This document shows, piece after piece, positions 44,023-62,849 of a stretch of DNA of 64,000 nucleotides. Source of the DNA: Nitrospirota bacterium (GTDB lineage: Bacteria; Nitrospirota; UBA9217); contig CAWIYV010000011.1 of the NCBI GenBank assembly GCA_963840455.1, positions 800,001 through 864,000 on the forward strand, read 5' to 3'. The translations under genes were made by a program, and so were the position numbers. The notes under the pieces were generated by a model that saw only the letters and a list, made by a program, of their open reading frames with translations, searched no databases and was not told the origin of the DNA. Every line of letters begins with the position of its first letter. The stretch's first letter is position 1.

Positions 44023-44271
44023 TTACTTCTTCGCGAGCTCCTTCAGCGCGGGGCGGTACTTCTCAATGAACTCGTTCACCTGACCGGCGAACGCCTTGTC
44101 GATCCCCGGCACCTTCCGCTTCTTTCTGACCGGGGCGATCACGATCCTTTCCTGTTCTTCATCCAGCTCGACATTCACGTCTGAGCCGGCGGCAAGATCG
44201 AGCTTGTTCAGGATCTCGACCGGGATCAACACCCCTTTGCTGTTCCCTATGGCAACGACCTTTCTGCGCAT
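44023..44271 (-). CDS. orphan AbrB antitoxin, near-identical to 36429-36677
   Basis: Three aa differences; no doc gene downstream. Confidence 0.88.
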   Translation of the reverse strand: MRRKVVAIGNSKGVLIPVEILNKLDLAAGSDVNVELDEEQERIVIAPVRKKRKVPGIDKAFAGQVNEFIEKYRPALKELAKK

Positions 44272-49622: not shown

Positions 49623-50541
49623 TTAACACATTTCCCTAAACTGTTCATAACGAATCGTTAACAGTTTTGGATCAGGTCGTAGAGCAATCGCCTTAGGAAC
49701 AAAGATACTTTGACCATGAAGTGCCTGAATAGCATGAGCTAGTGTTGGGCCATCCTTTTCTCGCAGAATATCTGGACGCACCTCCAGTTTATAATCCGGT
49801 CGGATACCGATGAACCTGCGATCGAACGCGCTATGATGGAGCGTACAAAGAGCGATTCCATTACGAACAACAGGCCTCCCTTCTGGATGAGAATCAGGAA
49901 TAATATGCGCTGCTTCCAACATCTCTTCATGTCGAAACCGACAGAAAGCACATTGTCTTCTGTATGCTTCTAGCACCCGTTCGCGAAAGGATTGTTGATG
50001 TAATCGGACACGAACGGATGACGTTATATAACTTCGACGGGCATCTTCTTCTGAATCATGCACACCAGCTGCAACTGCACTATCACCACCAAACGATACG
50101 TGTCGTTCATCATCCACTGCAACAGTAACCGTCAAATTAGTTGCATCATCACCTACGACATAGACTGGCCACACCGCCATGTACTTGCCGGGTAATACCA
50201 AACAAGTATACGAGAGGAATGCGATGCTGCATTGCCATTCGCAAACCTCGGTTCTCTCGATGCTCAGGATCATTCCCACGATATCGATACATTAGCAGTT
50301 TATCGGCAACTTGTTTATCATTATAAGGGCTGTTTGGAGTAGTTGTGATAGATAGCGGAATATGCCCAAGAGCCTTAGGTATAAAGATTCCCTGCGGACC
50401 AAGCAAAGGCACGCGAATGCCATCAAAGGTAAAGCCGGAGGCAAGAAGCTCTCGTGGAAGAACATCACCATGGAGGGCAACTTGCTCTAATAGCCATGCA
50501 AATGCTGCCGCTCGTATTTGTCTATCGTGTTCGAGATCCAT
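49623..50541 (-). pseudogene. HNH restriction-endonuclease-like gene (COG3440-type), frameshifted near 50195
   Basis: N-part GPQGIF.P, YND; C-part FR..VL.AY...CAFC, AAHI, NGI.LC..HH..FD; one base missing at ...GI/PGKY. Confidence 0.8.
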
Positions 50542-50555
50542 ATATACCACCGACA

Positions 50556-50957
50556 TCAAGGTGAGCGCTGATATTGTCCTAAATACGCATCCAGCACGGG
50601 ACGATCAGCCTCAGCCCAATCGAGTTCGTGAAGCTTCTCTGGCTGAAGCCACGTAAAAGCCTTATGCTCGTGAAGCTTTATTTCACCGGCTGTGATTCTG
50701 CAAACAAAGGGGTAGAGAGTAATAATAAAGGTAGGATATTGGTGTGTTGTCGGGGCGAGAGACCGAGATATAGCTATGGCAATACCAAGTTCTTCATGTA
50801 ATTCACGCTTGAGGCATTCATCTGGCTGCTCCCCGTCGTTGATCTTTCCGCCTGGGAACTCCCACTTCAGGGGTAAGCTCATTGCCTCGCTACGTTGAGT
50901 TGAGAGCACCTTGCCGTCTTTTTCTATGATTGCACAGGTTACGTGAATGTGTTTCAT
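50556..50957 (-). CDS. MutT/NudG-like Nudix (d)NTP pyrophosphohydrolase
   Basis: WEFPGGK...GE....CLKREL.EELGI, W..AD. Confidence 0.92.
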   Translation of the reverse strand: MKHIHVTCAIIEKDGKVLSTQRSEAMSLPLKWEFPGGKINDGEQPDECLKRELHEELGIAIAISRSLAPTTHQYPTFIITLYPFVCRITAGEIKLHEHKAFTWLQPEKLHELDWAEADRPVLDAYLGQYQRSP

Positions 50958-51043
50958 TAAGCCGCTAGTTGTATAAATAGTCTGCTTTTAACTGCATTCA
51001 AACGCAATTCCTAACCCTAAAGACCCCATGGTTGAAAAACCCA

Positions 51044-52433
51044 CTAGAGCAAGTCCAGTTGGCCGCTCGCAATCTTCTTCTTTTTGTAGTGTTTCAATAA
51101 AGCATTTACCTTTTCGTATTTTGAGTGGACACTACCATCAAAATGATTTCCGTGTACGATCTTAATAAATTCCTCTTTTTGCGTTGGCGATAATGCTGAT
51201 ACTTGTTTCTTCCATGCAACAGCTCCGTTGGATTTGTGCTTATCTCTATAAATAATGTAATTGTCTGGCATGAGAATTAGCTTCTTAAACTTATCAACAT
51301 TTTTACCAAACGCAGCCTCAAAGAATTCTCTTCTCGGGCTGACGACACCATGAGTAGCATGGAGAATGCATTGAATGCCTCGCAAATAACGTGCATTCCA
51401 ATGCTCGCCTACATACTTACGATCTTTGTTTTTAATCGGGATATACTTCATTGGAAATGAGAATATTTTCGTACCGAGGCGCTCATTTAACATTACATTA
51501 ATGCGCAAGCGTTCATAGAAATCTTCTGGTTTATCATGAAAATTGTAGAGGATGTAATTCGACAGGTTAAGCATTCCAAACTCAGCAGCCCACTCTATTT
51601 TCTGTATATACTGCTCCTTCATACCAATATGATCAAAAGCAATTCTCAATGGTTTGATAGGAAGCTCCGAGAGTCTTTTCATCTTCTCCTTTGTCAGCTT
51701 CCTCATATCAACGCCTTGATTGAAATCAACATGCCGCTCCTTCTTATTTAATTTTGCCCCTTTATAAAAACCTGCCTTTTTAATTTCATCTACAATGTCG
51801 TCAAATCTATCTGACGCCAGCACATTATTATCCAACAATAGCAAATCCGTCATCTTTCCATACTTCTTATCGATTTGTTGAATTTGCTTCAACAACGGAA
51901 TGTACTCAACATATTTTGGTTCAAGTGTTGGCACTGCACAAAATTCACAATGCCTGATGCAACCTCTAGTCATGTATGAAAAATAAGCGTCATTGGCAGG
52001 ATATTTGTATTCTATTTCTTCGAGAATGCTATAGTCAGGTACTAAATTGTCTATTCTATAATCGTAAGGCAGCTTAATCTTTCCCTTTTCATTCAACAAA
52101 CCCACAACCGGTTTGAAACCTGTTTCTTCTTCAATTTCCTGTAACATGATAGTCGCCATAGGACCGCCAATATAGAGATTCTGTCGGATCTTTCACGCTA
52201 TATTCGTAATATTTTATCGTCTTTATTGTTTCGGCCCAATAGAAACTGAACAGAGTTGTGATATATATTCTGTCCCAGGCTTGTTCTCTTATTTCAGCGT
52301 TTAAGCCTTTAATAAAGCGGACGTGCTCTCCACGCTCCTTATGAAAGGCGGCTATTTTCATAAGACCAAGCGGTGGATACTTGTTTTTATATGCAGGTTC
52401 AACAAGTAATATATGACTCTTTCTTTTCTTCAT
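51044..52433 (-). pseudogene. radical SAM protein with B12-binding-like N-terminus, frameshifted near 52185
   Basis: ILLVEP..KNKYPPLGLMKI, IGGPMAT, RGCIRHCEFCAVP..E, LDNN, VDFNQG; ATGA overlap with the MBL gene. Confidence 0.85.
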
Positions 52434-54742
52434 AGAGGGTGACTTAACCGAGCCAAAATTTCTTCCCATTTATTCCTTTCTTCAATATCTTTTGGTTCAT
52501 TTCTAGCGATCAAGTTAAAGAGAGAACGAAATAAGTTACTCTCTGCATTTGAAGTTGTTTGAATCGCCAAACCAGTTGACAATAAATACGCAATGTAACC
52601 ATTACTTAATGTTTGTACAGATTCGAAAAGATCATCCAGCTCTGCCGACTTGCGGATGGCCTCTTCAAGATAGATTCTCTTATCCAAATCCGTTACATGT
52701 GGCAATTCCTCTCGCATCATTGCAGTACTTATTCCAGTCGCTGCTTGCCAGCATCTTTCCTCATCTGAACATTGCCTGATCAAACCGTCGACAACGGTTC
52801 TCATATCACTTATTGCCTTCTGATATTGTTTAATGTAGCTGCCTATTGTCGCTTCGTTTGTGCTTAGTACAACATCCTTGACCGCCCCACCATTCGCAAG
52901 AAGAACATCTATCCTTTCATCATGACTCAGCGAAGACCAAACACTAGCGACAGTCACGTTTCTTAATGAATCTAGAATCTGGGACGCTTTCTCAATGTCA
53001 TATGTCCTAAAAGCAACTGCGATGTCGTGTAATAGCCCCCCGCTTTTTTGATAAATGATCACGTCCTCAGCTGACTTAGACTCATCTGGCTCATCGAAAC
53101 CCCGCATCCCGCAAAAAGTTGCGAAACTTGTAAATATATCAACGTCCTTATATTGTGTATTCATCATATAATATTTTAGAAAGTCGGCAATGAGTCCCAG
53201 ATTGCGACCTGAGGCGACGACTTCCAGAATGTCATTTGGATTGTCAATAATACAAGATAACGCTATTAGGCGACCGTTAATGTATAGTTCTTTTTCTTCT
53301 TGATCCCAAGGATTTAAATCAAACGTAGCAGCGGCGACATCCCTAATCAAAGTGTTCCGCGTCGCAGGCCCCAGATGGAAACCGGACTTAACGCTTTCAT
53401 AAAATACCTTTTTATAAATGCCGAGGCCATCCCTTATGGGCAATGTCCTCAGAATTTCATCTTTCGGAGCATGAGGCGGCATTCGATCTTCGGAATAATA
53501 CTTTATGGTTCTTTGCGATTCGCCTTCTTCAACGTCACTGTAAGATATTTGATCCCATTCGACTGGCTCGCCCGAAAAATAGCACATGCATTTCCTGGAA
53601 TCTAACAGAACAAAAAGCCCGATATCGCCAGGCAAGCATTTTATAGAGGGATGTATTTTCTGTGCTGTAGATTGAATTGCAGCTACAAGAGGACCTCTAA
53701 TGTCATTAAGCTCTTCACCAAATTCAGATACGATGCAGAGATCTGGCTTCCAATTCTCGATAGTGCTGATAGTGCCTAATATGCCAAGGTGCTTTTTGTA
53801 ATATTCTTTCTTAGTTATTTCCTCATTCGCGAATTCACTTCTCTTAATTGTGCCTATGTGTGCAACTAACACGTCTACTGCGTCCGTTGCATTTTCCACC
53901 CTCGTATGAACACTATGCTCCCTTAAGAACGCTTCATTTAGGTCTGCGATGTCGAAATCCCAGCCAGTATCGCCCGTTAATAACAAATTTCTACCACTGA
54001 CGCGAAAACATGCCCCAAGTGAATAATCGGCTGTTATAATTTCGTGATGCTTCGTATATATTGTTAGAATCTCGAAATCAAGATCATCTCTACCAGGCAC
54101 TCTTATTGATTGACCGGGGCTCATAACCGTTACTTTGCCGATATAATTCTTAAAATCCGTATTTGCGAGGTCCAAGTAATTAGAAAACTTCTTAAAGGAA
54201 CCAACATTTAGAAACAGATCTACCTTCTTTGAGGTTCTATGGTTAAGATATTTATCGTTCCGTTGATAAAGCAGACTAAGTAAAGACTCAAAGTCATTGG
54301 TGTGATCGTTATGTGCGTGAGTAATAAAGATGCCGTCAATATCATCTAGGCAAAAGCCGGCCAAACCGAAATTATGAATAAAGTTATATCCGGGGTCAAT
54401 TACGAGCCCGTAGCCGGATTTCAGGCTATTCTCTTGCCCTTGCACATATAAGAAATAACCGCCACCAATACTATACTGGTTAATTCTCTTTATTTGATCA
54501 GATTCTATTGGCAAACTAGGCGTGTATGAATTCCACTTTCGCAGAACGACAAAGAAACTCTCACATCCTAAAGGTATTCGTCGATATTGCGAAATAAAAG
54601 CCGCTCTCTTTTCCTCAAGCTGTTCGACAGATTGTAAAAAATCGTAAGGTTCCCCCTGCGAAAGCCGTTCTCTGATACCCGGCATCTCGTTATTTAGGAA
54701 ATGCAATAAATCTTGCCTACGGTTTTCTCTAGTTTTATACAT
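52430..54742 (-). CDS. large metallo-beta-lactamase-fold hydrolase with C-terminal helical extension
   Basis: GGGYFL, VIDPG..F, THAHNDH, TGDT, H.G, HLG, SEFGEE. Confidence 0.85.
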   Translation of the reverse strand: MYKTRENRRQDLLHFLNNEMPGIRERLSQGEPYDFLQSVEQLEEKRAAFISQYRRIPLGCESFFVVLRKWNSYTPSLPIESDQIKRINQYSIGGGYFLYVQGQENSLKSGYGLVIDPGYNFIHNFGLAGFCLDDIDGIFITHAHNDHTNDFESLLSLLYQRNDKYLNHRTSKKVDLFLNVGSFKKFSNYLDLANTDFKNYIGKVTVMSPGQSIRVPGRDDLDFEILTIYTKHHEIITADYSLGACFRVSGRNLLLTGDTGWDFDIADLNEAFLREHSVHTRVENATDAVDVLVAHIGTIKRSEFANEEITKKEYYKKHLGILGTISTIENWKPDLCIVSEFGEELNDIRGPLVAAIQSTAQKIHPSIKCLPGDIGLFVLLDSRKCMCYFSGEPVEWDQISYSDVEEGESQRTIKYYSEDRMPPHAPKDEILRTLPIRDGLGIYKKVFYESVKSGFHLGPATRNTLIRDVAAATFDLNPWDQEEKELYINGRLIALSCIIDNPNDILEVVASGRNLGLIADFLKYYMMNTQYKDVDIFTSFATFCGMRGFDEPDESKSAEDVIIYQKSGGLLHDIAVAFRTYDIEKASQILDSLRNVTVASVWSSLSHDERIDVLLANGGAVKDVVLSTNEATIGSYIKQYQKAISDMRTVVDGLIRQCSDEERCWQAATGISTAMMREELPHVTDLDKRIYLEEAIRKSAELDDLFESVQTLSNGYIAYLLSTGLAIQTTSNAESNLFRSLFNLIARNEPKDIEERNKWEEILARLSHPL

Positions 54743-55785
54743 TACAGTAATCCCTTAGATGCGAGAGATGTGTTGAACTTTTCTGCCAAGATATTTACCC
54801 CTTTAAAACCGCCGGCAGACTTATCATAGTAATCTACATTTGCTTGCCTCATTGCTGACGCATAGGCGTGAAAATCAACTCTATCGGCTTTCTTCTTGTC
54901 TAGATTTGCAACTAATATGAAGCGTAGTGTTTTGACCAATGCATTAAATCCAACGCTCTTTAAAAGTATTGTTGAATTATTCCACTCCTGTGCAAAATTC
55001 TTTCGAACGGCAGCAAAATATCTTTCGAGCAAATGCACTTTCTCCTGCATAGAGTAACTACTGCCTAGTAATTCCAAAATATGATATTTTGTTGTTAATG
55101 CTTCAACCAAAGATGCTTGGCTTACATGGCCGGTTCCTATCCCCAACATTTTTATCATTCCATACAGCGGAGATTCGACATTGCTGTTTAAAGCAGATAC
55201 GATTTCATGAGCTTCCTTATACTTAACAAAATCCGGGTCTTTGTTAAAAGCAAGTAAGTCATATACCAACGATTTGCTCACGGGTTTTTGATAGTAATTA
55301 ATCCTAGTGAATATTTCGGCGATCGTTGGTAGCTCCAGGCCGAAGTAGGCAGCAACTACTAAGTCTAGCTGATTACCTTTACTATATTTTGATGCGAACG
55401 CTTTTAAGCGATGTTGTCCATCGATAACGTAAGCCGATTTTTCTTCAACGCTTATAGTCAACAAACTCTTTTTTGGGTCGTAAAACTCGTCCTTGTACGC
55501 GAGGGGAATATTAAGAATTATTGAATTGGGGAAGAACGGGTGCTCAGATGAAATAAATTGGCCAATCTCCTTATCCCTATCTTCTTTATGAGCTCTTTGA
55601 ACGCCAAGAGGAGAATCTGTTCTTGACAGGAATTTCGCAATGTCGAGCACAATATTCGATGGCAGTGAAAATATGAAGAAGTCATTTTCCTTCGAAAAGT
55701 CGTCTTCATCAAAGAGAGTTTCTTTAGAGCGCTGTTTAACTTTAATAGCAGCTGCCCGTATATTTATGAATCCACCTGCTGGCAT
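54742..55785 (-). CDS. DGQHR-domain protein (DndB/DpdB-like, ParB/Srx superfamily)
   Basis: QR, FPNSII, VIDGQHRL, F..IN..QKPV..SL. Confidence 0.9.
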   Translation of the reverse strand: MPAGGFINIRAAAIKVKQRSKETLFDEDDFSKENDFFIFSLPSNIVLDIAKFLSRTDSPLGVQRAHKEDRDKEIGQFISSEHPFFPNSIILNIPLAYKDEFYDPKKSLLTISVEEKSAYVIDGQHRLKAFASKYSKGNQLDLVVAAYFGLELPTIAEIFTRINYYQKPVSKSLVYDLLAFNKDPDFVKYKEAHEIVSALNSNVESPLYGMIKMLGIGTGHVSQASLVEALTTKYHILELLGSSYSMQEKVHLLERYFAAVRKNFAQEWNNSTILLKSVGFNALVKTLRFILVANLDKKKADRVDFHAYASAMRQANVDYYDKSAGGFKGVNILAEKFNTSLASKGLL

Positions 55786-55794
55786 GAAACCTCC

Positions 55795-56823
55795 TTAAGA
55801 ATCCAAGCCAATTTCGCGACAGAACCTTGCGAATTTTCTATAACATTGTTGTAATTCGGCCTTCTTGTTCTTGTTCTCTTCCATTTCTTCTCTTACTTTT
55901 TTAATCTCCGACTCTTCAAGCAATTCCCTGAACTCTCTCACCTTTTTATAGAATCGATCAACCTTCTCAGGCTTATGTTCATACAGGACATGCTTGCCCT
56001 CATCAAACGCAAACTTTGGATCTCCCTCCGTAAATGCTTTCATTGCTTTTTTATGACTCAAGATTTTAGGGAGGTCCCTAACATTCTGTGCCTTCTTTAA
56101 TCTATCTTCCCTGACCCACCCAACAAATTCATCAAGAAATTCCGGCGTGTCTTGCGTTCTTTTTACAAGCTCTTTTTGAAGATAAAAAGCCTCAAAATAG
56201 CTGTACTTCTTTAACTCGTCACGTGAGCCATTAACCAGTTCTTCATTTTTATCATTGGCAAGATATTTTTTAGACATTACTTCATATGCGTTCAACATGG
56301 CATCAATGGACTTCCTTTGCTTACCAAGCTGTTTCGCAATTACGTCAGGACTTTTTTTTAGGGTCTTGATCATTTTGTATATATAAGCTGCCTTTTCATA
56401 TGCGTCCCACTCCGTTTTCCCCTTAATATGAAACGTTCCTAAAATATAGAAAAGTTCATCTTCCGTTACATCTTCCTGTAGAATCCTCGCTTTGATAAAT
56501 TTCCATGTCTTTTCTTTTGGATATTTCTTATTCAACCTTCGAAATGCGCAAAGACGGGTATTCCCTTCAACTACCTTATTCCCAAGCACATATATTTCGT
56601 CTAAGAGACCTTTGTTTTCTTCCAGATCTTTAATTCTCTCTTTAGTAGAATCCAGTTTCAATAATTCTTGCTCGATGAATTCCTGTGTTACTCTCTTCGG
56701 TGGATTTCTACTCACGATGTAGTTGATGCGCGGGTTTTCTCGATAAAACTCGACGTTATAAATATCGACGTCTTTAATCTCATAAAATATTTCTCTGCCT
56801 AATACTGTAATCGATTCTTGCAC
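55795..56823 (-). CDS. ParB/Srx-like protein 2
   Basis: ENPRI, VVEGNTRL, WDAYEKA, KKYSYF; GTG start. Confidence 0.75.
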   Translation of the reverse strand: MQESITVLGREIFYEIKDVDIYNVEFYRENPRINYIVSRNPPKRVTQEFIEQELLKLDSTKERIKDLEENKGLLDEIYVLGNKVVEGNTRLCAFRRLNKKYPKEKTWKFIKARILQEDVTEDELFYILGTFHIKGKTEWDAYEKAAYIYKMIKTLKKSPDVIAKQLGKQRKSIDAMLNAYEVMSKKYLANDKNEELVNGSRDELKKYSYFEAFYLQKELVKRTQDTPEFLDEFVGWVREDRLKKAQNVRDLPKILSHKKAMKAFTEGDPKFAFDEGKHVLYEHKPEKVDRFYKKVREFRELLEESEIKKVREEMEENKNKKAELQQCYRKFARFCREIGLDS

Positions 56824-56827
56824 CGCG

Positions 56828-58257
56828 TTAGCCCCCCAAAATAGTCAATAGTTCTTTTTTGTTTAAAAGAAACTCAGAACTGTCGGGCCGCAATTCTTTT
56901 CGATCACTTTGCACAAAGGCAGCAATATCTGTTTTAACCTCAATAACCCTGTCAATGTATTCGTCTATTGTATGTTTTCCGATTATTTTATAGATATTAC
57001 ATGGTTTAGTTTGAGATATTCTATGTATTCTGTCCTGCGATTGCAAGTAATCAACAAGATTAAAATTTCTATCTAGATAGATTGCATTGTTAGCCCTTGT
57101 TAATGTCAATCCCTCTCTAGCTGCTGCAGGATTCGCTATCAGAACTTCATTCTTATCAGACTCTTGAAATGCTTTAACAGCTTCAGCTCGCTCTTTTATC
57201 GGCACATCGCCGTGTATAATTAGCGGATTATATTTCTTGTACCTTGATCTTAAAGTCGTTATATTTTCTACAAAGCTGGTCCAAACAATAGCCTTCTCTC
57301 CTCTAGAGGTTATCTCCTCCAAAAGGTCATCCAACGTGTTAAATTTGGCAGGCGTGCCATTGTAGCTTTTATCGACCATATGTGGATTACTTGCAATTTG
57401 AGTTAGCCTTAATAGCTTTTTGAGGATATTATCAGCTTCATCAATTACCCTATTCCCATCCATGTCTTGGACTTCGATACGCAATTCTTCACGTAGTTTG
57501 TTGTATTGTTCGAGTTGTTTGCCGGAAAGCTCGACGTATACATTTGTATATTTTTTCTCGGGAAGCTCAAGAACATCATCTTTACAGCGACGCAATGAGT
57601 GCTGCGAGATTATAATTTTCAACTCATCAAGCTGCTCTGTGTAATCATCATTCTTTTCATTGTATTTAGATTTAAATTCGCTAAAATCATCACCAAGAAG
57701 TTTGCCTCCATCTAGAAAATAATATTGCGACCACAAATCAATTGGCTTATTAGCGACCGGTGTTCCGGTAATAATAATTCGTTTTTCAGAAAAGGGCCGA
57801 AGAACAAATAATGCCTGAGCTGTTTTTGTTGCTGGATCCTTAATGCGTGCTGATTCATCAGGACTATTGCAACCTGGCGACTCTTACAAAATCGCTTAAT
57901 TCGTTCTAGCTCAGCGACGACACCTTCGTAGTTAGTTATATAGAAATTTGCCCCGGTTAGGAATTTATATCGTTTTTCTTTTTCTCCACCTCGCAACACT
58001 ATTGGAATGAGAAATGAGTGCTTTGCAACCTCCTGCTCCCAGTTATACAGCAAAGACATTGGCGCCACAACGAGGACGCCTTCTAACGCACTGTTCTTCA
58101 TTGAGAGACACAGTGAGTCTATTACTATCTTGGTTTTTCCTAACCCCTGCTCATCAAATAGGGCGACCTCTTGTTTATCGTATAGGTAGTTGATCGCCTC
58201 TATCTGGTGTGGCATTGCTTGCGTCTTGGGCTTAAATATTTGCTTTTTTCTAATCAT
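56828..58257 (-). pseudogene. compact SNF2-family helicase, frameshifted at motif II near 57860
   Basis: HQ, DEQGLGKT, NYE, (L)DESARIK, TGTP..N, GLTL..A, QSQDRIHRI.Q. Confidence 0.85.
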
Positions 58258-58657
58258 TTATTATTTCATCAGGTACATAAAGGATCGTGATATTTGTAGA
58301 CAAATGCAATCCAATTTTTTCCAAGCCTTTCAGAATTGTCTTTTCAACAGACTTAGGAACTCCTATATAGACATCGCATTTCATCCCATTCAGTTCGAGG
58401 TTAGCAAAATCTCTTAACTGCTCGAAAGTTCGCGTGTTCATGATATCATTTTCTGTTTTTGCCTCGCCAATGCAGATCTGACCGTTCTCCTTTACACCCA
58501 TTGCATCCGGCCTATGTCTTATAATCGTAGGTGGCATCGGACATGCTTCTCCAAATAATCCCGGATATGTTCCGTCTACGCATGATATTGTAGCTCCGTC
58601 TTCGCGCATCTTCTTTATGACAAGTCCGAGAATAAATTGATGTCTATTGCCCGCCAT
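58250..58657 (-). CDS. small PD-(D/E)xK nuclease-like protein (appears fused to the upstream gene in this assembly)
   Basis: H.PD...IGEAKT..D; ATG overlaps a TAA (TAATG). Confidence 0.65.
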   Translation of the reverse strand: MAGNRHQFILGLVIKKMREDGATISCVDGTYPGLFGEACPMPPTIIRHRPDAMGVKENGQICIGEAKTENDIMNTRTFEQLRDFANLELNGMKCDVYIGVPKSVEKTILKGLEKIGLHLSTNITILYVPDEIIND

Positions 58658-59674
58658 TACGAAATGGTTCCGATATTCTTTAAAAAGATTAGTAACAGTA
58701 TCATGTAGTTTTTTTAGAGATTCGATTTTTGCGGGCTGCAATCCCCGTTTTATCTCATCAAGCTCGCTAAACGGTATGCCTTCCAATCCCACGATAACGT
58801 CTTCTACTTTTTCAAATAGCTTTGATTTTGCCGCAGGATTCTTTTGTTCTAGTTGGTCAAGTGCCGCCTGAAAGTTATCGTCCATAAGAGCTTGTTTCGA
58901 TTGTTCATCATTTAGCACCATGGGAAGTTTTCGAATGTCTTCACCTCGTTTGAATTTACCATCACCAACCCATTCGCAAAAATCCATTAGTGATACTTTC
59001 CCATCTTTTACAAGTCTCTTTAACTCCCTGTTTTTTCGAAATTCCACGAAGTAGCTGAACTTTAGCCGTTCTGATGGCTTATTGTATTTAGGAAGATATT
59101 GCTCTTCCATGTCTGTATAAGCTTGTATGTTATTTCTTATTTCATTGGCTCTTAACTTCGTTAGCTGCTCAAGACGCTTTAGCGAGTAATCCTCGTCTGT
59201 ATGGAGGCGGTATAGTTCCCTTGCTTTTTCATACGCAGCCCACGGCGTTGCTCCAAATAGATGTTTTTCCAGCCTTATGAAGTTAATTACGTTTCGATCT
59301 ATCTTATACGGCAACTCGTACGCATCAATTGTTTTCCACTTGTCATCGTTTACGTACTTTTCTGATAGTTCTTCGTATATAAAAGACCTCGTATTACCCT
59401 CAATCACAACATAATAATTATCCTTCGGCACTACCCAAATCGGGTCATAGATACCGCCGTTCAGCTCTATATGCTCTTTCAGCTTTTCGTACTGATCATT
59501 ACCTTCAGCAAGAGCGAACTTTATCTTATCTTGAGTTACATTATCATTCAGACGGGTATCGAGAAAATATTGGATACGGGGATTTTCAATATCGAGAATG
59601 AGTTGCTTAATAGGAATCTTAGTTCGCTTAATTTCAGTTGATACTCCGTCTAGATTAACAGTTATATTATCCAT
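58657..59674 (-). CDS. ParB/Srx-like protein 1
   Basis: ENPRI, G...PI.V, VIEGNTR, WAAYEKA, KFSYF; RBS AAGGAG; probable extra T near 58684. Confidence 0.75.
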
Positions 59675-59719
59675 GTATGCTCCTTGACAAGGAAACCTTA
59701 TATTGGTCAGGACCGTTTG

Positions 59720-59744
59720 GGGTCAGGCCTGAAAAGATGAAATG
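59720..59744. repeat. GGGGTCAGG motif subfamily (reverse-complement copies at 32871-32895, 19471-19489, 30612-30634, 31951-31975)
   Basis: GGGGTCAGGCCTGAAAAGATGAAAT. Confidence 0.85.
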
Positions 59745-59784
59745 TTGCCCGCCCCCTCGTTTTACGCTTCGGCCCCCATAGGGT

Positions 59785-60191
59785 CACCCATTTAAAGGGC
59801 ACCGTCAAGCGAAAACAGCTATCTTGTGGCGAGAAACGAAACGTTTCTCGCCTAGCCTTGTCGTTATCTTCATCTTCACCATTGCCGCAGTTTCATTCGG
59901 TTTCGGCGTCAGTCTTCACTGCACCAGTCACCCATCGGGATTAAGGTCATTGGTGGAGCTCTTTTATCCATGACCCTTTCCGCCTTTTGGCGGACCAGAA
60001 AATCTTCGGTTCCATGCCGTGTCCAGGAGTTCGTACAAGTCTTATGGTTGTTAACCAGCCCCAAGATGGCTCGCGGTATGGGCAGTAAAGATGCTGATAA
60101 CGCTATAAAAGGGTGGGACGGATTACCAATCAGGTCTCGTGGTTTTACCAACCCTAAGGCAGGTTCACCGTCCCAGCCAGCTTGTGAACTT
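59785..60191 (-). ncRNA. putative bridge/seek RNA
   Basis: Same sequence as 38279-38685; target loop at 60114-60175. Confidence 0.8.
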
Positions 60192-61214
60192 TCATTGCGT
60201 AAAGAGCTTCTCCGGCATAAAGGACACTCCATCTCTCATGATGTAATACGCTGCTCGTGCCAGTTTGTGTGACAGGGCTTGATGCGCTATCATTGCGTTG
60301 GTCTTTTGCATCTTTCGCTGGTAAAATGCCCGGGCCTCCGGATAATGGCGCCGGGCAATCTCGGCAGCTTCGGAAAAGGCCCACGCCAGGTACTTGTTGC
60401 CGCTCTTCTTGTTTCCTTTGCCCTTTTTCTTATCGTTGCTGATCCATTTTGTTGAAACCTTTCGGCAGTAGGAGCAGTAGTTGCCGACTTGCGCAAAACG
60501 GCTGATGGGGCCGGTTTCTAGCATGATCGTAAGTCCCAACGTTTTCCCCACACCTTGCATGGTGAGGAGCTTCGTGTATTGTTCGCGCAGCTCCATTCTT
60601 TCTTCGACGACGTTTTCAACGGCTTTGATCTGGCGCGTCAGAAAATCTATGGACTCCTTGCTGATCTTGCCAGCCAATGCCAGGTCCTCGTTCTGTTCAA
60701 GAAACGGCGCAACGCGATCTGTATTCAATGCCTTGACGTCATTCGTCTTGATCCGAAACCCATTGTTGCGGCAAATAATGTTCTGCAAGCTGATGATGAG
60801 CGAAGTCCTGAGCTTTACGAGATGACTTCTTTTGCGTAACAAGTCGCGGATCGGTCTATCTTCTTTCGGGTAAATGTAGCCTTCGGGCAGGATTCCGAGC
60901 CGCAGCATCTCGGCCAGCCAGAAGGCATCATGCTGATCGTCTGAATACTTGAGTCCCTTATATTGTTTAATCTCCGTAGGGTTGGCGAGATGAACCTTGT
61001 ATCCTTCCGCCATGAGTGCATCCACCAACCAGTACCAGTTGTACGTGGACTCGATGACGATGCCGGTAATTGCATCAATGTAGGGTGCGAGGGCGGAAAG
61101 AATTTGTTCCGAATCATTGGGGAGCTTCCTCTTGAACACCCGTTTACCAGTTTCATCGATGATCGCCAGATAACTGTTGCTTGAATGCAGATCAATTCCT
61201 GTGTACAATCGCAT
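60192..61214 (-). CDS. IS110 family recombinase/transposase
   Basis: GIDLH, IES, K.SD..DA (DEDD); T..GVG, E.G...RF, S.....KG..K.GN..L. Confidence 0.96.
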   Translation of the reverse strand: MRLYTGIDLHSSNSYLAIIDETGKRVFKRKLPNDSEQILSALAPYIDAITGIVIESTYNWYWLVDALMAEGYKVHLANPTEIKQYKGLKYSDDQHDAFWLAEMLRLGILPEGYIYPKEDRPIRDLLRKRSHLVKLRTSLIISLQNIICRNNGFRIKTNDVKALNTDRVAPFLEQNEDLALAGKISKESIDFLTRQIKAVENVVEERMELREQYTKLLTMQGVGKTLGLTIMLETGPISRFAQVGNYCSYCRKVSTKWISNDKKKGKGNKKSGNKYLAWAFSEAAEIARRHYPEARAFYQRKMQKTNAMIAHQALSHKLARAAYYIMRDGVSFMPEKLFTQ

Positions 61215-61992: not shown

Positions 61993-62382
61993 TCAACGGG
62001 CGCCGATCTTCTTTTCGACAAATGCCCGCAGCGCCCGCACCATGTCCAGAGCGGCCGTGCGGTCAAGTTTCGTCTCCACGGAAATGTCTTCATAGCGCAA
62101 CAGCGTGCCGTAGGGTGTCAGCAGGTCGAGGTCGGCGAGGGAGGACGGCAAGGGGTGTCCGGCATCCGTTAAAAGGTCCATCAACAGCCGTAGATTGTGC
62201 GTGCGGGGAAAGTGAACGCTGAATTCAGAGAGCAGCGCCTTGAGGAGCTTTTCCGAGGCCTGCTGGGCATGGAATCCGAATATCTCATTGCTGATCCGCT
62301 CCCGGTCGACCACTTCGGCGAGAAGCGCCTCGTCCTCGACGGCCTTGCGGACGAACAGGAGCGCCTGTTCATGCTGCCTCAT
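61993..62382 (-). CDS. HEPN-domain protein (MNT-HEPN toxin)
   Basis: FHAQQASEKLLKA, RTHNL..L, RY. Confidence 0.9.
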   Translation of the reverse strand: MRQHEQALLFVRKAVEDEALLAEVVDRERISNEIFGFHAQQASEKLLKALLSEFSVHFPRTHNLRLLMDLLTDAGHPLPSSLADLDLLTPYGTLLRYEDISVETKLDRTAALDMVRALRAFVEKKIGAR

Positions 62383-62686
62383 ACAGCACCTTGCCTTCGC
62401 GGAGAGCGTCAAAATACACGTTGCCGGGCGTGGTAGCCCAATACTCGAACGTAGCCTGGCTTACCACGAGGAGGTCGACGGAGATGCGGAGCGGGCTCAG
62501 AACGCGGTTCAGGCGTGCCATTTCAGCAACGCGGTCCTTGACATCGGCCTCCACGATCAGCAGATCGACGTCGCTGTCCTCGCGCGGCTCGCCCCTGCCG
62601 TAGGAACCGAACAGAATGATCTTGCGCGGACGGGCCGCGTCCGAGAGGATCCTCGCTGCCTCCGCGATCTTTTCCTGTGCGACCAT
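62369..62686 (-). CDS. minimal nucleotidyltransferase (MNT antitoxin)
   Basis: ILFGSYGRG....DSDVDLL, VDLLV, EG.VLY. Confidence 0.92.
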   Translation of the reverse strand: MVAQEKIAEAARILSDAARPRKIILFGSYGRGEPREDSDVDLLIVEADVKDRVAEMARLNRVLSPLRISVDLLVVSQATFEYWATTPGNVYFDALREGKVLYEAA

Positions 62687-62779
62687 GCTCTCACGGCCTC
62701 CTGACCGGTACACCTTTTTGTAGCATAACGGGACGCCAAATACAAGGCGAAACCGGCAGCCACTGCGATCTAAAATCAT

Positions 62780-62849
62780 GACACGGGGACGCGGTGACAC
62801 GGAGACGATACTTCCGACAGGGAGACGCGGTGACACGGGGACACGGTGA
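62780..62849 (+). repeat. 8-bp-period tandem repeat (related block at 61828-61870)
   Basis: GACACGGG/GACGCGGT/GACACGGA units with shared CGATACTTCCGACA. Confidence 0.75.

Follow-up and report, generated by a model that had tools for sequence, protein, structure and literature searches.

A conserved ParB, nuclease, SNF2, DGQHR, metallo-beta-lactamase and radical SAM gene cassette as a candidate DNA modification and restriction system

The window analysed here is a stretch of 64,000 nucleotides (nt) from a Nitrospirota bacterium (assembly GCA_963840455.1, contig CAWIYV010000011.1, positions 800,001 to 864,000), and on its minus strand, between window positions 59674 and 51044, lie seven co-oriented and translationally coupled genes. 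In 5' to 3' order these encode a ParB-like protein (ParB1), a 135-amino acid (aa) protein with a PD-(D/E)xK motif, a SNF2 ATPase, a second ParB-like protein (ParB2), a DGQHR-domain protein, a metallo-beta-lactamase-fold hydrolase (MBL) and a radical S-adenosylmethionine enzyme (rSAM). The cassette is real and conserved, and it is apparently undescribed. It is the rSAM, and not the ParB proteins, that is the constant hub of a larger family with interchangeable DNA-handling modules, and the window operon consists of a five-gene ParB-nuclease-SNF2-ParB-rSAM core into which a DGQHR-MBL pair has been inserted, ahead of the rSAM gene. We propose, with a probability of about one half, that the cassette is a horizontally mobile, composite defence system of the DNA modification-and-restriction type, built around a distinct rSAM clade, in which the rSAM would mark DNA and the other genes would read the mark or restrict. 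What would be new on this analysis is a variant of the multi-gene DNA modification and restriction systems that has an rSAM as its presumed chemistry module.

An earlier sequence-only reading of the window had described seven co-oriented genes with overlapping or nearly abutting junctions on an AT-rich island, and the open reading frames (ORFs), the base composition and the junctions themselves all agree with that description. The G+C fraction is 0.37-0.42 across the island (51-60 kb), compared with mostly 0.50-0.65 across the remaining window. Read directly from the sequence, the ParB1/nuclease junction is TAATG; the nuclease and SNF2 genes overlap by 8 nt (ATGATTAG); SNF2 and ParB2 are separated by 4 nt; a gap of 9 nt with GGAGG inside it separates ParB2 from DGQHR; the DGQHR/MBL junction is again TAATG, and that between MBL and rSAM is ATGA.

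The same reading had called for a search for these genes in conserved order elsewhere, and such co-occurrence was indeed found. When the MBL was used as the anchor, 60 genome loci were obtained, 53 of them with tblastn hits at E<=1e-5, and five of these 53 carry other operon genes while the other 48 have only a more distant MBL. All seven genes are present in unchanged order in a Nitrospiraceae genome (locus L002), in Ca. Brocadia (L005) and in another member of the Nitrospirota (L007), as well as in a metagenome contig (L064), and across these four loci the identities range from 36 to 83%. The two other loci with operon genes are a 3-kb contig with DGQHR-MBL (L004) and a Syntrophomonadaceae locus (L003), in which DGQHR-MBL lies behind PbeA/C/D-like genes and is accompanied by a convergent rSAM-GHKL pair. 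In two further metagenome loci (L062 and L063), a gene for a 278-aa protein with no family match (c20; L062:6198-7034) replaces MBL between DGQHR and rSAM. The sequences that flank the cassette are unrelated between genomes and consist of housekeeping or toxin-antitoxin genes. The rSAM was not found in any of five same-genus genomes, and in only one of 18 same-family genomes, there as a fragment. Since gene order is conserved while the flanks are unrelated and the distribution is sporadic, we conclude that the cassette moves horizontally as a discrete unit.

Relatives of the rSAM are far more numerous than those of the MBL. In a search of 1.84 billion cluster representatives, 299 50%-identity clusters matched it at E<=1e-30, and relaxing the threshold to E<=0.001 raised the number only to 1960, which indicates that the clade is well separated. 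The family is not rare, either: a metagenome scan with the rSAM alignment gave at least 517 relatives, of which 80 loci were kept, and a scan of viral contigs gave at least 502. ORFs were called and clustered in 84 rSAM-anchored loci, comprising the 80 metagenome loci and four genome loci, and the co-oriented gene lying within 400 nt upstream of the rSAM gene was counted. It can be seen that this gene most often encodes a PbeD-like small protein (23/84 loci), followed by ParB (16/84), DGQHR (13/84) and MBL (7/84). A 422-aa protein (c13), which lies behind a HerA-like ATPase where upstream sequence is available, takes the position in four loci, a GHKL ATPase in three, the 278-aa stand-in for MBL in two, and a 245-aa protein (c11) and a PbeC-like protein in one each; other genes account for nine loci, and in five there was none or the contig ended. 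In 70/84 loci the rSAM thus closes an operon that takes one of several alternative forms, the modules before it being PbeABCD-like, ParB-nuclease-SNF2-ParB, DGQHR (some with a weak HEPN match), DGQHR-MBL, HerA-like and GHKL.

Both parts of the window operon also occur separately. The five-gene ParB-nuclease-SNF2-ParB-rSAM unit is found without DGQHR-MBL in about 12 loci, and DGQHR-MBL-rSAM is found without the ParB and SNF2 genes in L070, L082 and L090. Use of ParB2 as an independent anchor led back to the same hub, as rSAM was present in the same locus for all eight of the viral-contig ParB2 relatives. Viral contigs contain a ParB-nuclease-SNF2-ParB-rSAM-GHKL form and a c24-c16-GHKL-rSAM form, and both recur. 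In other rSAM loci the Pbe-like partners match PbeA at 2e-222, PbeC at 1.5e-133 and, weakly, PbeD at 0.0032, and a 60-70-aa ORF lies between PbeA and PbeC at the position expected of PbeB, which is given as 66 aa in the available text of PMC6459918. In long DGQHR partners (about 760 aa) the C-terminus matches HEPN weakly (E 0.0035-0.011), which fits a sensor-effector design in which MBL would be the separate effector. The 245-aa gene, which has a weak NT5C match, recurs in five loci. Phages encode a shorter rSAM family, of about 300 aa (phrog_9298, 1.4e-48; L184-L222), that is 28-30% identical to the first ~300 residues; its genes lie near DUF5131, N6_N4 DNA methylase, DnaB and terminase-like genes, and no ParB or DGQHR partner was detectable at these loci with the hidden Markov models used.

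One rSAM locus has an unusual downstream neighbour. A 736-aa fusion of a class-V aminotransferase of the cysteine-desulfurase type with domains of the AIR-synthase (AIRS) type is encoded directly downstream of rSAM (L068:5793-8003), and the fusion appears again several genes downstream in L110, its AIRS part being read as SelD-like. The association may be fortuitous, or it may point to chemistry involving sulfur or selenium.

We next consider the individual proteins, starting with the hub. The rSAM gene (51044..52433, minus strand, as for all genes of the operon) encodes a protein of about 460 aa in relatives. The three cysteines of its CX3CX2C motif (C155, C159, C162) are invariant in 25/25 sequences, and the intact protein of L002 scores 30.1 against Pfam Radical_SAM PF04055 (cut-off 29.5), compared with 25.2, below the cut-off, for the fragment in the window. 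An N-terminal domain of the Rossmann type, resembling B12-binding domains and bearing a PPLGL motif, precedes the core, and the alignment contains no conserved N-domain cysteine for a second cluster. A structural model (predicted local distance difference test score, pLDDT, 81.3) was compared with solved folds using Foldseek, and its closest matches were MgmA, TsrM, MiaB, AprD4, OxsB, TokK and CysS. The best of these are class-B methylases, MgmA (9ccb) at 7.8e-12 and TsrM (6wte) at 2.3e-10; AprD4 matches at 3.3e-9, and spore photoproduct lyase is a distant match at 1.4e-3. There is no match in PADLOC-DB v2, and the clade carries no label in PADLOC, Pfam or NCBIfam beyond 'cobalamin-binding domain-containing protein'. 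A predicted complex of the DGQHR protein (A8) with rSAM (A2) scored 0.00 in two runs, which we take as evidence neither way.

ParB1 (58657..59674) is 339 aa long in relatives, although its ORF in the window extends to 474 aa, and it combines a ParB/Srx-type N-domain with a helical DNA-binding region. ParB2 (55795..56823; 342 aa) is its paralog over the full length (hhalign probability 100%, E 7.7e-55, 330 columns). The motifs NPR(I/V), EGN(T/S)R, H..G...W..YEKA and FSYF are invariant in both, and they include an arginine motif of the box II GxxR type, IEGNTR in 14/14 ParB1 sequences and E-G-N-x-R in 16/16 ParB2 sequences. Neither protein matches any Pfam or NCBIfam family at E<=0.01, ParB_N included. 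Beyond this there are only a match to the PHROG 'ParB-like partition protein' at 1.2e-6 and Atlas clusters whose members carry ParB_N in 17-19% of cases. In PADLOC the N-domains match PD-Lambda-5_A and PDC-M38A, the latter at 3.4e-8 for ParB2. An AlphaFold model of ParB1 (pLDDT 83.7) gave 29 Foldseek matches at E<=0.001, with a best TM-score on the target (TMt) of 0.60, to 6t1f; the 15 matches listed at this threshold comprise ParB of the cytidine triphosphate (CTP) type, Noc, KorB and Spo0J, while PadC and sulfiredoxin appear at weaker E. On the strength of this predicted fold of ParB1, the paralogy of ParB2 and the arginine motif of both, the two proteins are assigned to the ParB/Srx superfamily. 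When the ParB1 family was aligned with the DGQHR family by hhalign, the probability was 0.14% and not significant, though VIEGNTR was aligned with VIDGQHR; the relationship between the two thus rests on fold and family names, and not on hhalign.

The gene for the 135-aa protein (58250..58657) begins at the TAATG overlap and stands as a separate gene in relatives, L005 and L007 among them. Residues D51, E65 and K67, which make up a D...(D/E)xK motif, are invariant in 19/19 sequences, as are H6, P50, G64, A66 and D71. The protein has no Pfam, PADLOC or PHROG match, and by this motif alone it is a PD-(D/E)xK nuclease candidate. The SNF2 gene that follows (56828..58257) encodes a bare ATPase, in a single frame of 475-476 aa in relatives, with both lobes recognised by Pfam (SNF2-rel_dom PF00176 at 51.2 and 34.4 bits; Helicase_C PF00271 at 62.6 bits). 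Its matches in PADLOC-DB v2, to ZorD, DpdE, DrmD and PbeA, are at the level of domains only.

The DGQHR protein (54742..55785; 347 aa), a DndB/DpdB-like member of the ParB superfamily, scores 134.2 bits against TIGR03187 (cut-off 58.85), 43.9 bits against Pfam DndB and 95 bits against PADLOC DpdB. The motif from D122 to R126 is invariant in 13/13 sequences. It falls under the equivalog cut-offs for DpdB (NF041060, 82.4 against 300) and for Dnd-associated DGQHR protein 1 (TIGR04172, 124.1 against 450), and it is the only DGQHR protein in the whole genome. The MBL (52430..54742; 770 aa) passes two Pfam models, Lactamase_B_2 PF12706 (34.7, cut-off 27) and Lactamase_B PF00753 (31.3, cut-off 22.7). 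Its HxHxDH residues, H142, H144, D146 and H147, are invariant in 17/17 sequences, as are H232 and D258. The protein is built of an N-terminal MBL domain of about 420 aa and a helical C-terminal region of about 350 aa without known family; an Atlas search with the C-terminal 346 residues gave a best score of 0.77 and no family, and the MBLs of L005 and L007 are short forms of 413-424 aa that lack the C-terminal ~350 residues. The RNase Z cut-off was missed (TIGR02651, 25.9 against 292.95), as was that of Apyc1 by a short form (PF23023, 20.6 against 50). A sequence search of the PDB with rSAM, MBL, ParB1-nuclease and DGQHR returned nothing significant beyond weak MBL-motif matches. Taken together, these analyses uphold the protein assignments of the sequence-only reading: two mutual ParB/Srx paralogs with shared motifs, a ~135-aa protein with the PD-(D/E)xK catalytic motif, a minimal SNF2 ATPase, a DGQHR protein as third member of the ParB superfamily, a 770-aa MBL hydrolase and a radical SAM enzyme.

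The sequence-only reading had also put the operon forward as a candidate undescribed system and had stated that dndACDE are absent. In PADLOC-DB v2.0.0 no catalogued system was matched as a whole; there were only scattered domain-level matches to ZorD, DpdE, DpdB, PD-Lambda-5_A and PDC-M38A, the MBL and the 135-aa nuclease had none, and the NCBIfam equivalog cut-offs were missed by far. DndC (TIGR03183) was not found genome-wide, in a genome of 100% completeness. In the operon no Dpd protein was found other than the DGQHR/DpdB-like and SNF2/DpdE-like matches, and no genome-wide search for DpdA/TGT was made. A literature search, which did not extend to the supplements of papers, found no description of an rSAM with ParB, SNF2, DGQHR, MBL or Pbe partners.

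In Dnd and Dpd, DGQHR proteins are found alongside DNA-modifying enzymes, and SspE and GmrSD join a ParB-like DUF262 DGQxR NTPase to a nuclease. The likeness of the window operon to Dpd consists of a DGQHR protein and an SNF2 protein resembling DpdE (106 bits, C-terminal part) in a multi-gene island, although the DGQHR protein lies well under the DpdB equivalog cut-off. With SspE and GmrSD it shares the coupling of a ParB-superfamily DGQHR protein to a hydrolase, here MBL, with a fused region that matches HEPN weakly in sister loci; in contrast to them, the effector is MBL and not HNH/DUF1524, the two are separate genes, and the sensing role is only putative. The best PADLOC and NCBIfam matches of the SNF2 protein are Zorya ZorD (141 bits, C-terminal part) and DISARM DrmD. 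However, it consists of the 475-aa ATPase alone and lacks the Mrr nuclease and the N-terminal regions, it misses both equivalogs (ZorD NF041790, 60.6 against 1500; DrmD NF038317, 23.9 against 610), and no ZorABC or Drm partner was found with the window operon. The rSAM resembles the class-B methylases MgmA, TsrM, TokK, CysS and OxsB in having a Rossmann-type N-domain with PPLGL followed by a CX3CX2C barrel, but identity to these is 10-15%, TMq is 0.26-0.35 and its partners are DNA-handling proteins rather than members of antibiotic or cofactor pathways. The ParB pair has the N- and middle-domain fold and the conserved arginine motif of CTP-dependent clamps (ParB/Spo0J, Noc, KorB); it differs from these in the missing Pfam ParB_N match, in the pairing of two paralogs with a nuclease and an SNF2 protein, and in that no ParA was found. 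Ophion, in the text available of bioRxiv 10.1101/2025.09.30.679545, consists of an rSAM with PHP and PRTase, an architecture unrelated to that of the cassette.

In overall design, DndCDEA-PbeABCD and Dpd come closest to the cassette. According to the available text of PMC6459918 (Xiong et al. 2019), defence by DndCDEA-PbeABCD, that is, defence by the characterised system depends on DNA modification by the adjacent genes, yet 320/553 pbeAC pairs occur without dnd, and the authors suggest pairing with other modifications. DndCDEA-PbeABCD has since been re-annotated as a CxC-ABC ATPase/DndE system (PMC10853773), and in the accessible part of that paper radical SAM is mentioned only in connection with DndC. 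The window cassette would likewise pair a DNA-modifying module with a non-cleaving helicase/SMC-like restriction module in one locus, and the two are linked by the same rSAM clade, which stands at the 3' end of PbeA/PbeC/PbeD-like operons in 23/84 loci. Unlike DndCDEA-PbeABCD, the window operon has no PbeA, PbeC or PbeD, save for a 20.5-bit PbeA match to the N-terminal part of SNF2, its genome has no DndC, and the presumed writer is an rSAM in place of DndACDE.

We therefore turn to what such a cassette might do. The rSAM is proposed as the writer because its companion modules accompany DNA-modifying enzymes in known systems, PbeABCD with DndCDEA and DGQHR with Dnd and Dpd. By radical chemistry, most simply C-methylation of the cobalamin type, it would covalently mark the DNA of the cell itself. 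The two ParB-type nucleotide-switch clamps would load on DNA and, along with the PD-(D/E)xK nuclease and the SNF2 translocase, would scan for and attack DNA without the mark, while DGQHR and MBL would form a second sensor-effector pair comparable to SspE or GmrSD. The association of the rSAM with PbeABCD-like and DGQHR modules lends support to similar roles that the sequence-only reading had put forward, though these stay putative. A wider proposal, which we offer tentatively, is that the rSAM clade writes an undescribed radical-made DNA modification, such as methylation of an unactivated carbon, which would be the self-label for all of the interchangeable restriction modules. This would account for many 'solitary' PbeABCD systems without dnd, and the short phage homologs might use the mark to escape restriction.

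If the rSAM does mark DNA, then methylation, phosphorothioation and 7-deazaguanine would be joined by a new class of epigenetic chemistry, one that comes with ready-made natural reader and restriction modules. Which modification partners the many PbeABCD systems without dnd have is a question left open in the available text of PMC6459918, and the rSAM would be a concrete candidate. A clamp of two ParB paralogs working with an SNF2 motor and a nuclease would, moreover, give CTP-type ParB switches a new task beyond chromosome partition.

Several points weigh against this interpretation. The writer role is assigned through guilt by association, and the ParB-nuclease-SNF2-ParB-rSAM and DGQHR-rSAM forms have no obvious separate split between reader and restriction parts. 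The TM-scores of the rSAM model to solved class-B enzymes are low (0.26-0.38), the Pfam B12-binding model is unmatched save at E 0.03 in one long rSAM form, and AprD4, a dehydratase, and MiaB, both of which we take not to use cobalamin, score about as well, so that on the model methylation would be only one option. The 84 loci were gathered with rSAM as the anchor, and its constancy is thus partly by construction, the only independent anchors being MBL and ParB2. Frameshifts are present in two of the four genome copies, in the window and in ParB1 of L002, which could mean decay, toxicity or poor assembly. Finally, the NUDIX gene beside the operon, the weak NT5C-like gene (five loci) and the weak Apyc1-like matches of MBL also suit nucleotide chemistry.

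The last of these points leads to an alternative that we consider unlikely, in which the substrate of the rSAM is a free nucleotide or small molecule, its product a viperin-like chain terminator or a signal, and ParB, DGQHR, MBL and the NUDIX or nucleotidase-like genes bind, make or degrade nucleotides. One of the best fold matches of the rSAM, AprD4, is a diol dehydratase that has a B12-like domain, a PDC-S07 NUDIX is encoded 86 nt downstream of the rSAM gene, and the available text of PMC10853773 allows that nucleotides may be degraded by members of the ParB superfamily in conflict systems. MBL matches of the Apyc1 type (7u2s, E 0.13; PF23023 with the short form, E 3.4e-4) and the NT5C match in the 245-aa gene would fit as well, but all of these are weak and under the family cut-offs. 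Among the relatives examined a NUDIX gene was present only in L003, several kb from rSAM, and the commonest partners of the rSAM are DNA translocases and clamps (PbeA/C/D-like, SNF2, HerA-like and ParB) rather than enzymes of nucleotide metabolism. It is distinctly unlikely, in our estimate, that the rSAM is itself the effector, brought to invading DNA by interchangeable DNA-tracking modules and damaging or blocking it by radical chemistry with no self-marking at all. The rSAM is the constant final gene behind sensor and motor modules that vary, a placement like that of effectors in other defence operons; spore photoproduct lyase, a DNA-acting rSAM, is one of its distant fold matches; and in the Pfam-scanned flanks of L002, L003, L005 and L007 there is no separate methyltransferase or self-marking gene. 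However, the cassette already has dedicated nucleases (PD-(D/E)xK and MBL, with HEPN in sister loci), the short phage homologs, lying inside replication and DNA-methylase modules, suit a protective mark better than a weapon, and in the one case studied PbeABCD depends on a modification partner (available text of PMC6459918).

We regard it as very unlikely that the operon is two independent systems side by side, a five-gene ParB/SNF2/rSAM system and a DGQHR-MBL system, or that, instead of acting in defence, it helps to maintain or partition a mobile element. The separate occurrence of both parts, in about 12 loci for the one and in L070, L082 and L090 for the other, would be expected of independent systems, and ParB folds are typical of partition systems, as an IS110 element next door might be of a mobile element. 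Yet DGQHR-MBL does not lie beside the five-gene unit but sits between ParB2 and rSAM, with junctions of 9 nt, 1 nt and 2 nt, and every MBL of the subfamily among the loci examined follows a DGQHR gene and lies directly before rSAM in 7/8 loci, L003 being the exception. Pfam scans of the whole window, operon included, and of the sequences flanking L002, L003, L005 and L007 identified no ParA or other partition ATPase; parS-like repeats were not searched for.

Whatever the system does, the copy in the window is probably damaged. The sequence-only reading had noted three indels, and alignment of intact relatives back onto the window showed that they are real and located all of them. One extra base within 58682-58690 removes the ParB1 stop codon and fuses ParB1 to the nuclease in the single 474-aa ORF; a G is missing at 57859, within SNF2 motif II (VLDES); and one extra base near 52184 lies between the N-domain and the core of rSAM. 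Since ParB1, SNF2 and rSAM are all affected, this copy is probably inactive or decaying. All seven ORFs are full length in L005 and L007, while in L002 ParB1 is frameshifted at L002:5916-5938, with residues 1-293 in one frame and 286-336 in another. Short contigs for comparison came from two soil-metagenome DNA runs of one study, which contain 5-6% of the operon words; most pieces are 90-99% alike, about 94% identical, and the contigs span 17/30 bins, with the rSAM indel site outside them. No RNA run was listed among the sequencing runs checked for operon sequence. Contigs from both runs have an extra G behind 57859, and a contig from one run leaves out one base at 58688. These two indels are thus absent from the contigs, which indicates that close relatives have an intact SNF2 gene and separate ParB1 and nuclease genes. 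In the same assembly rpoB, rpoC and dnaE have open frames of 1387, 1390 and 1201 aa, so that indels are not a general problem of this assembly. Three of them in 8.6 kb look local, and only one is in or beside a homopolymer run. We lean towards the view that all three are real inactivating mutations rather than an assembly error specific to the island.

The surroundings of the cassette are a defence island, with a PDC-S07 NUDIX, an HNH endonuclease, PDC-S09 and IS110 genes. The MutT-type NUDIX hydrolase gene (50556..50957, minus strand) matches the PADLOC single-gene candidate PDC-S07 over its full length (E 2.3e-51). It was considered as an eighth operon gene and rejected on the basis of its distribution among relatives; the NUDIX of L003, about 6 kb upstream of the DGQHR gene there, is 34% identical to it. 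A scan of 50400-60400 for promoters and terminators was not informative, with 22 promoter-like sites where 24.2 were expected and 12 terminator-like sites against 7.9±2.9. An IS110-family transposase gene (60192..61214, minus strand; Pfam DEDD_Tnp_IS110 and Transposase_20) marks the upstream edge of the AT-rich island. A second one, on the plus strand at 37721-38561, consists of a 185-aa N-terminal piece followed by a 107-aa ORF and may be broken. The HNH endonuclease gene (49623-50559, minus strand) is apparently split into two overlapping frames of 136 aa and 218 aa, the second part of which matches PADLOC HNH PDLC04132 at 6.7e-23, and it may be another frameshifted defence gene on the island. 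Further out in the window lie two MazE-type antitoxin genes (36429-36785 and 44023-44271) and a nucleotidyltransferase gene (NTP_transf_2/Polbeta; 62369-62836, minus strand) that matches PADLOC PDC-S09.

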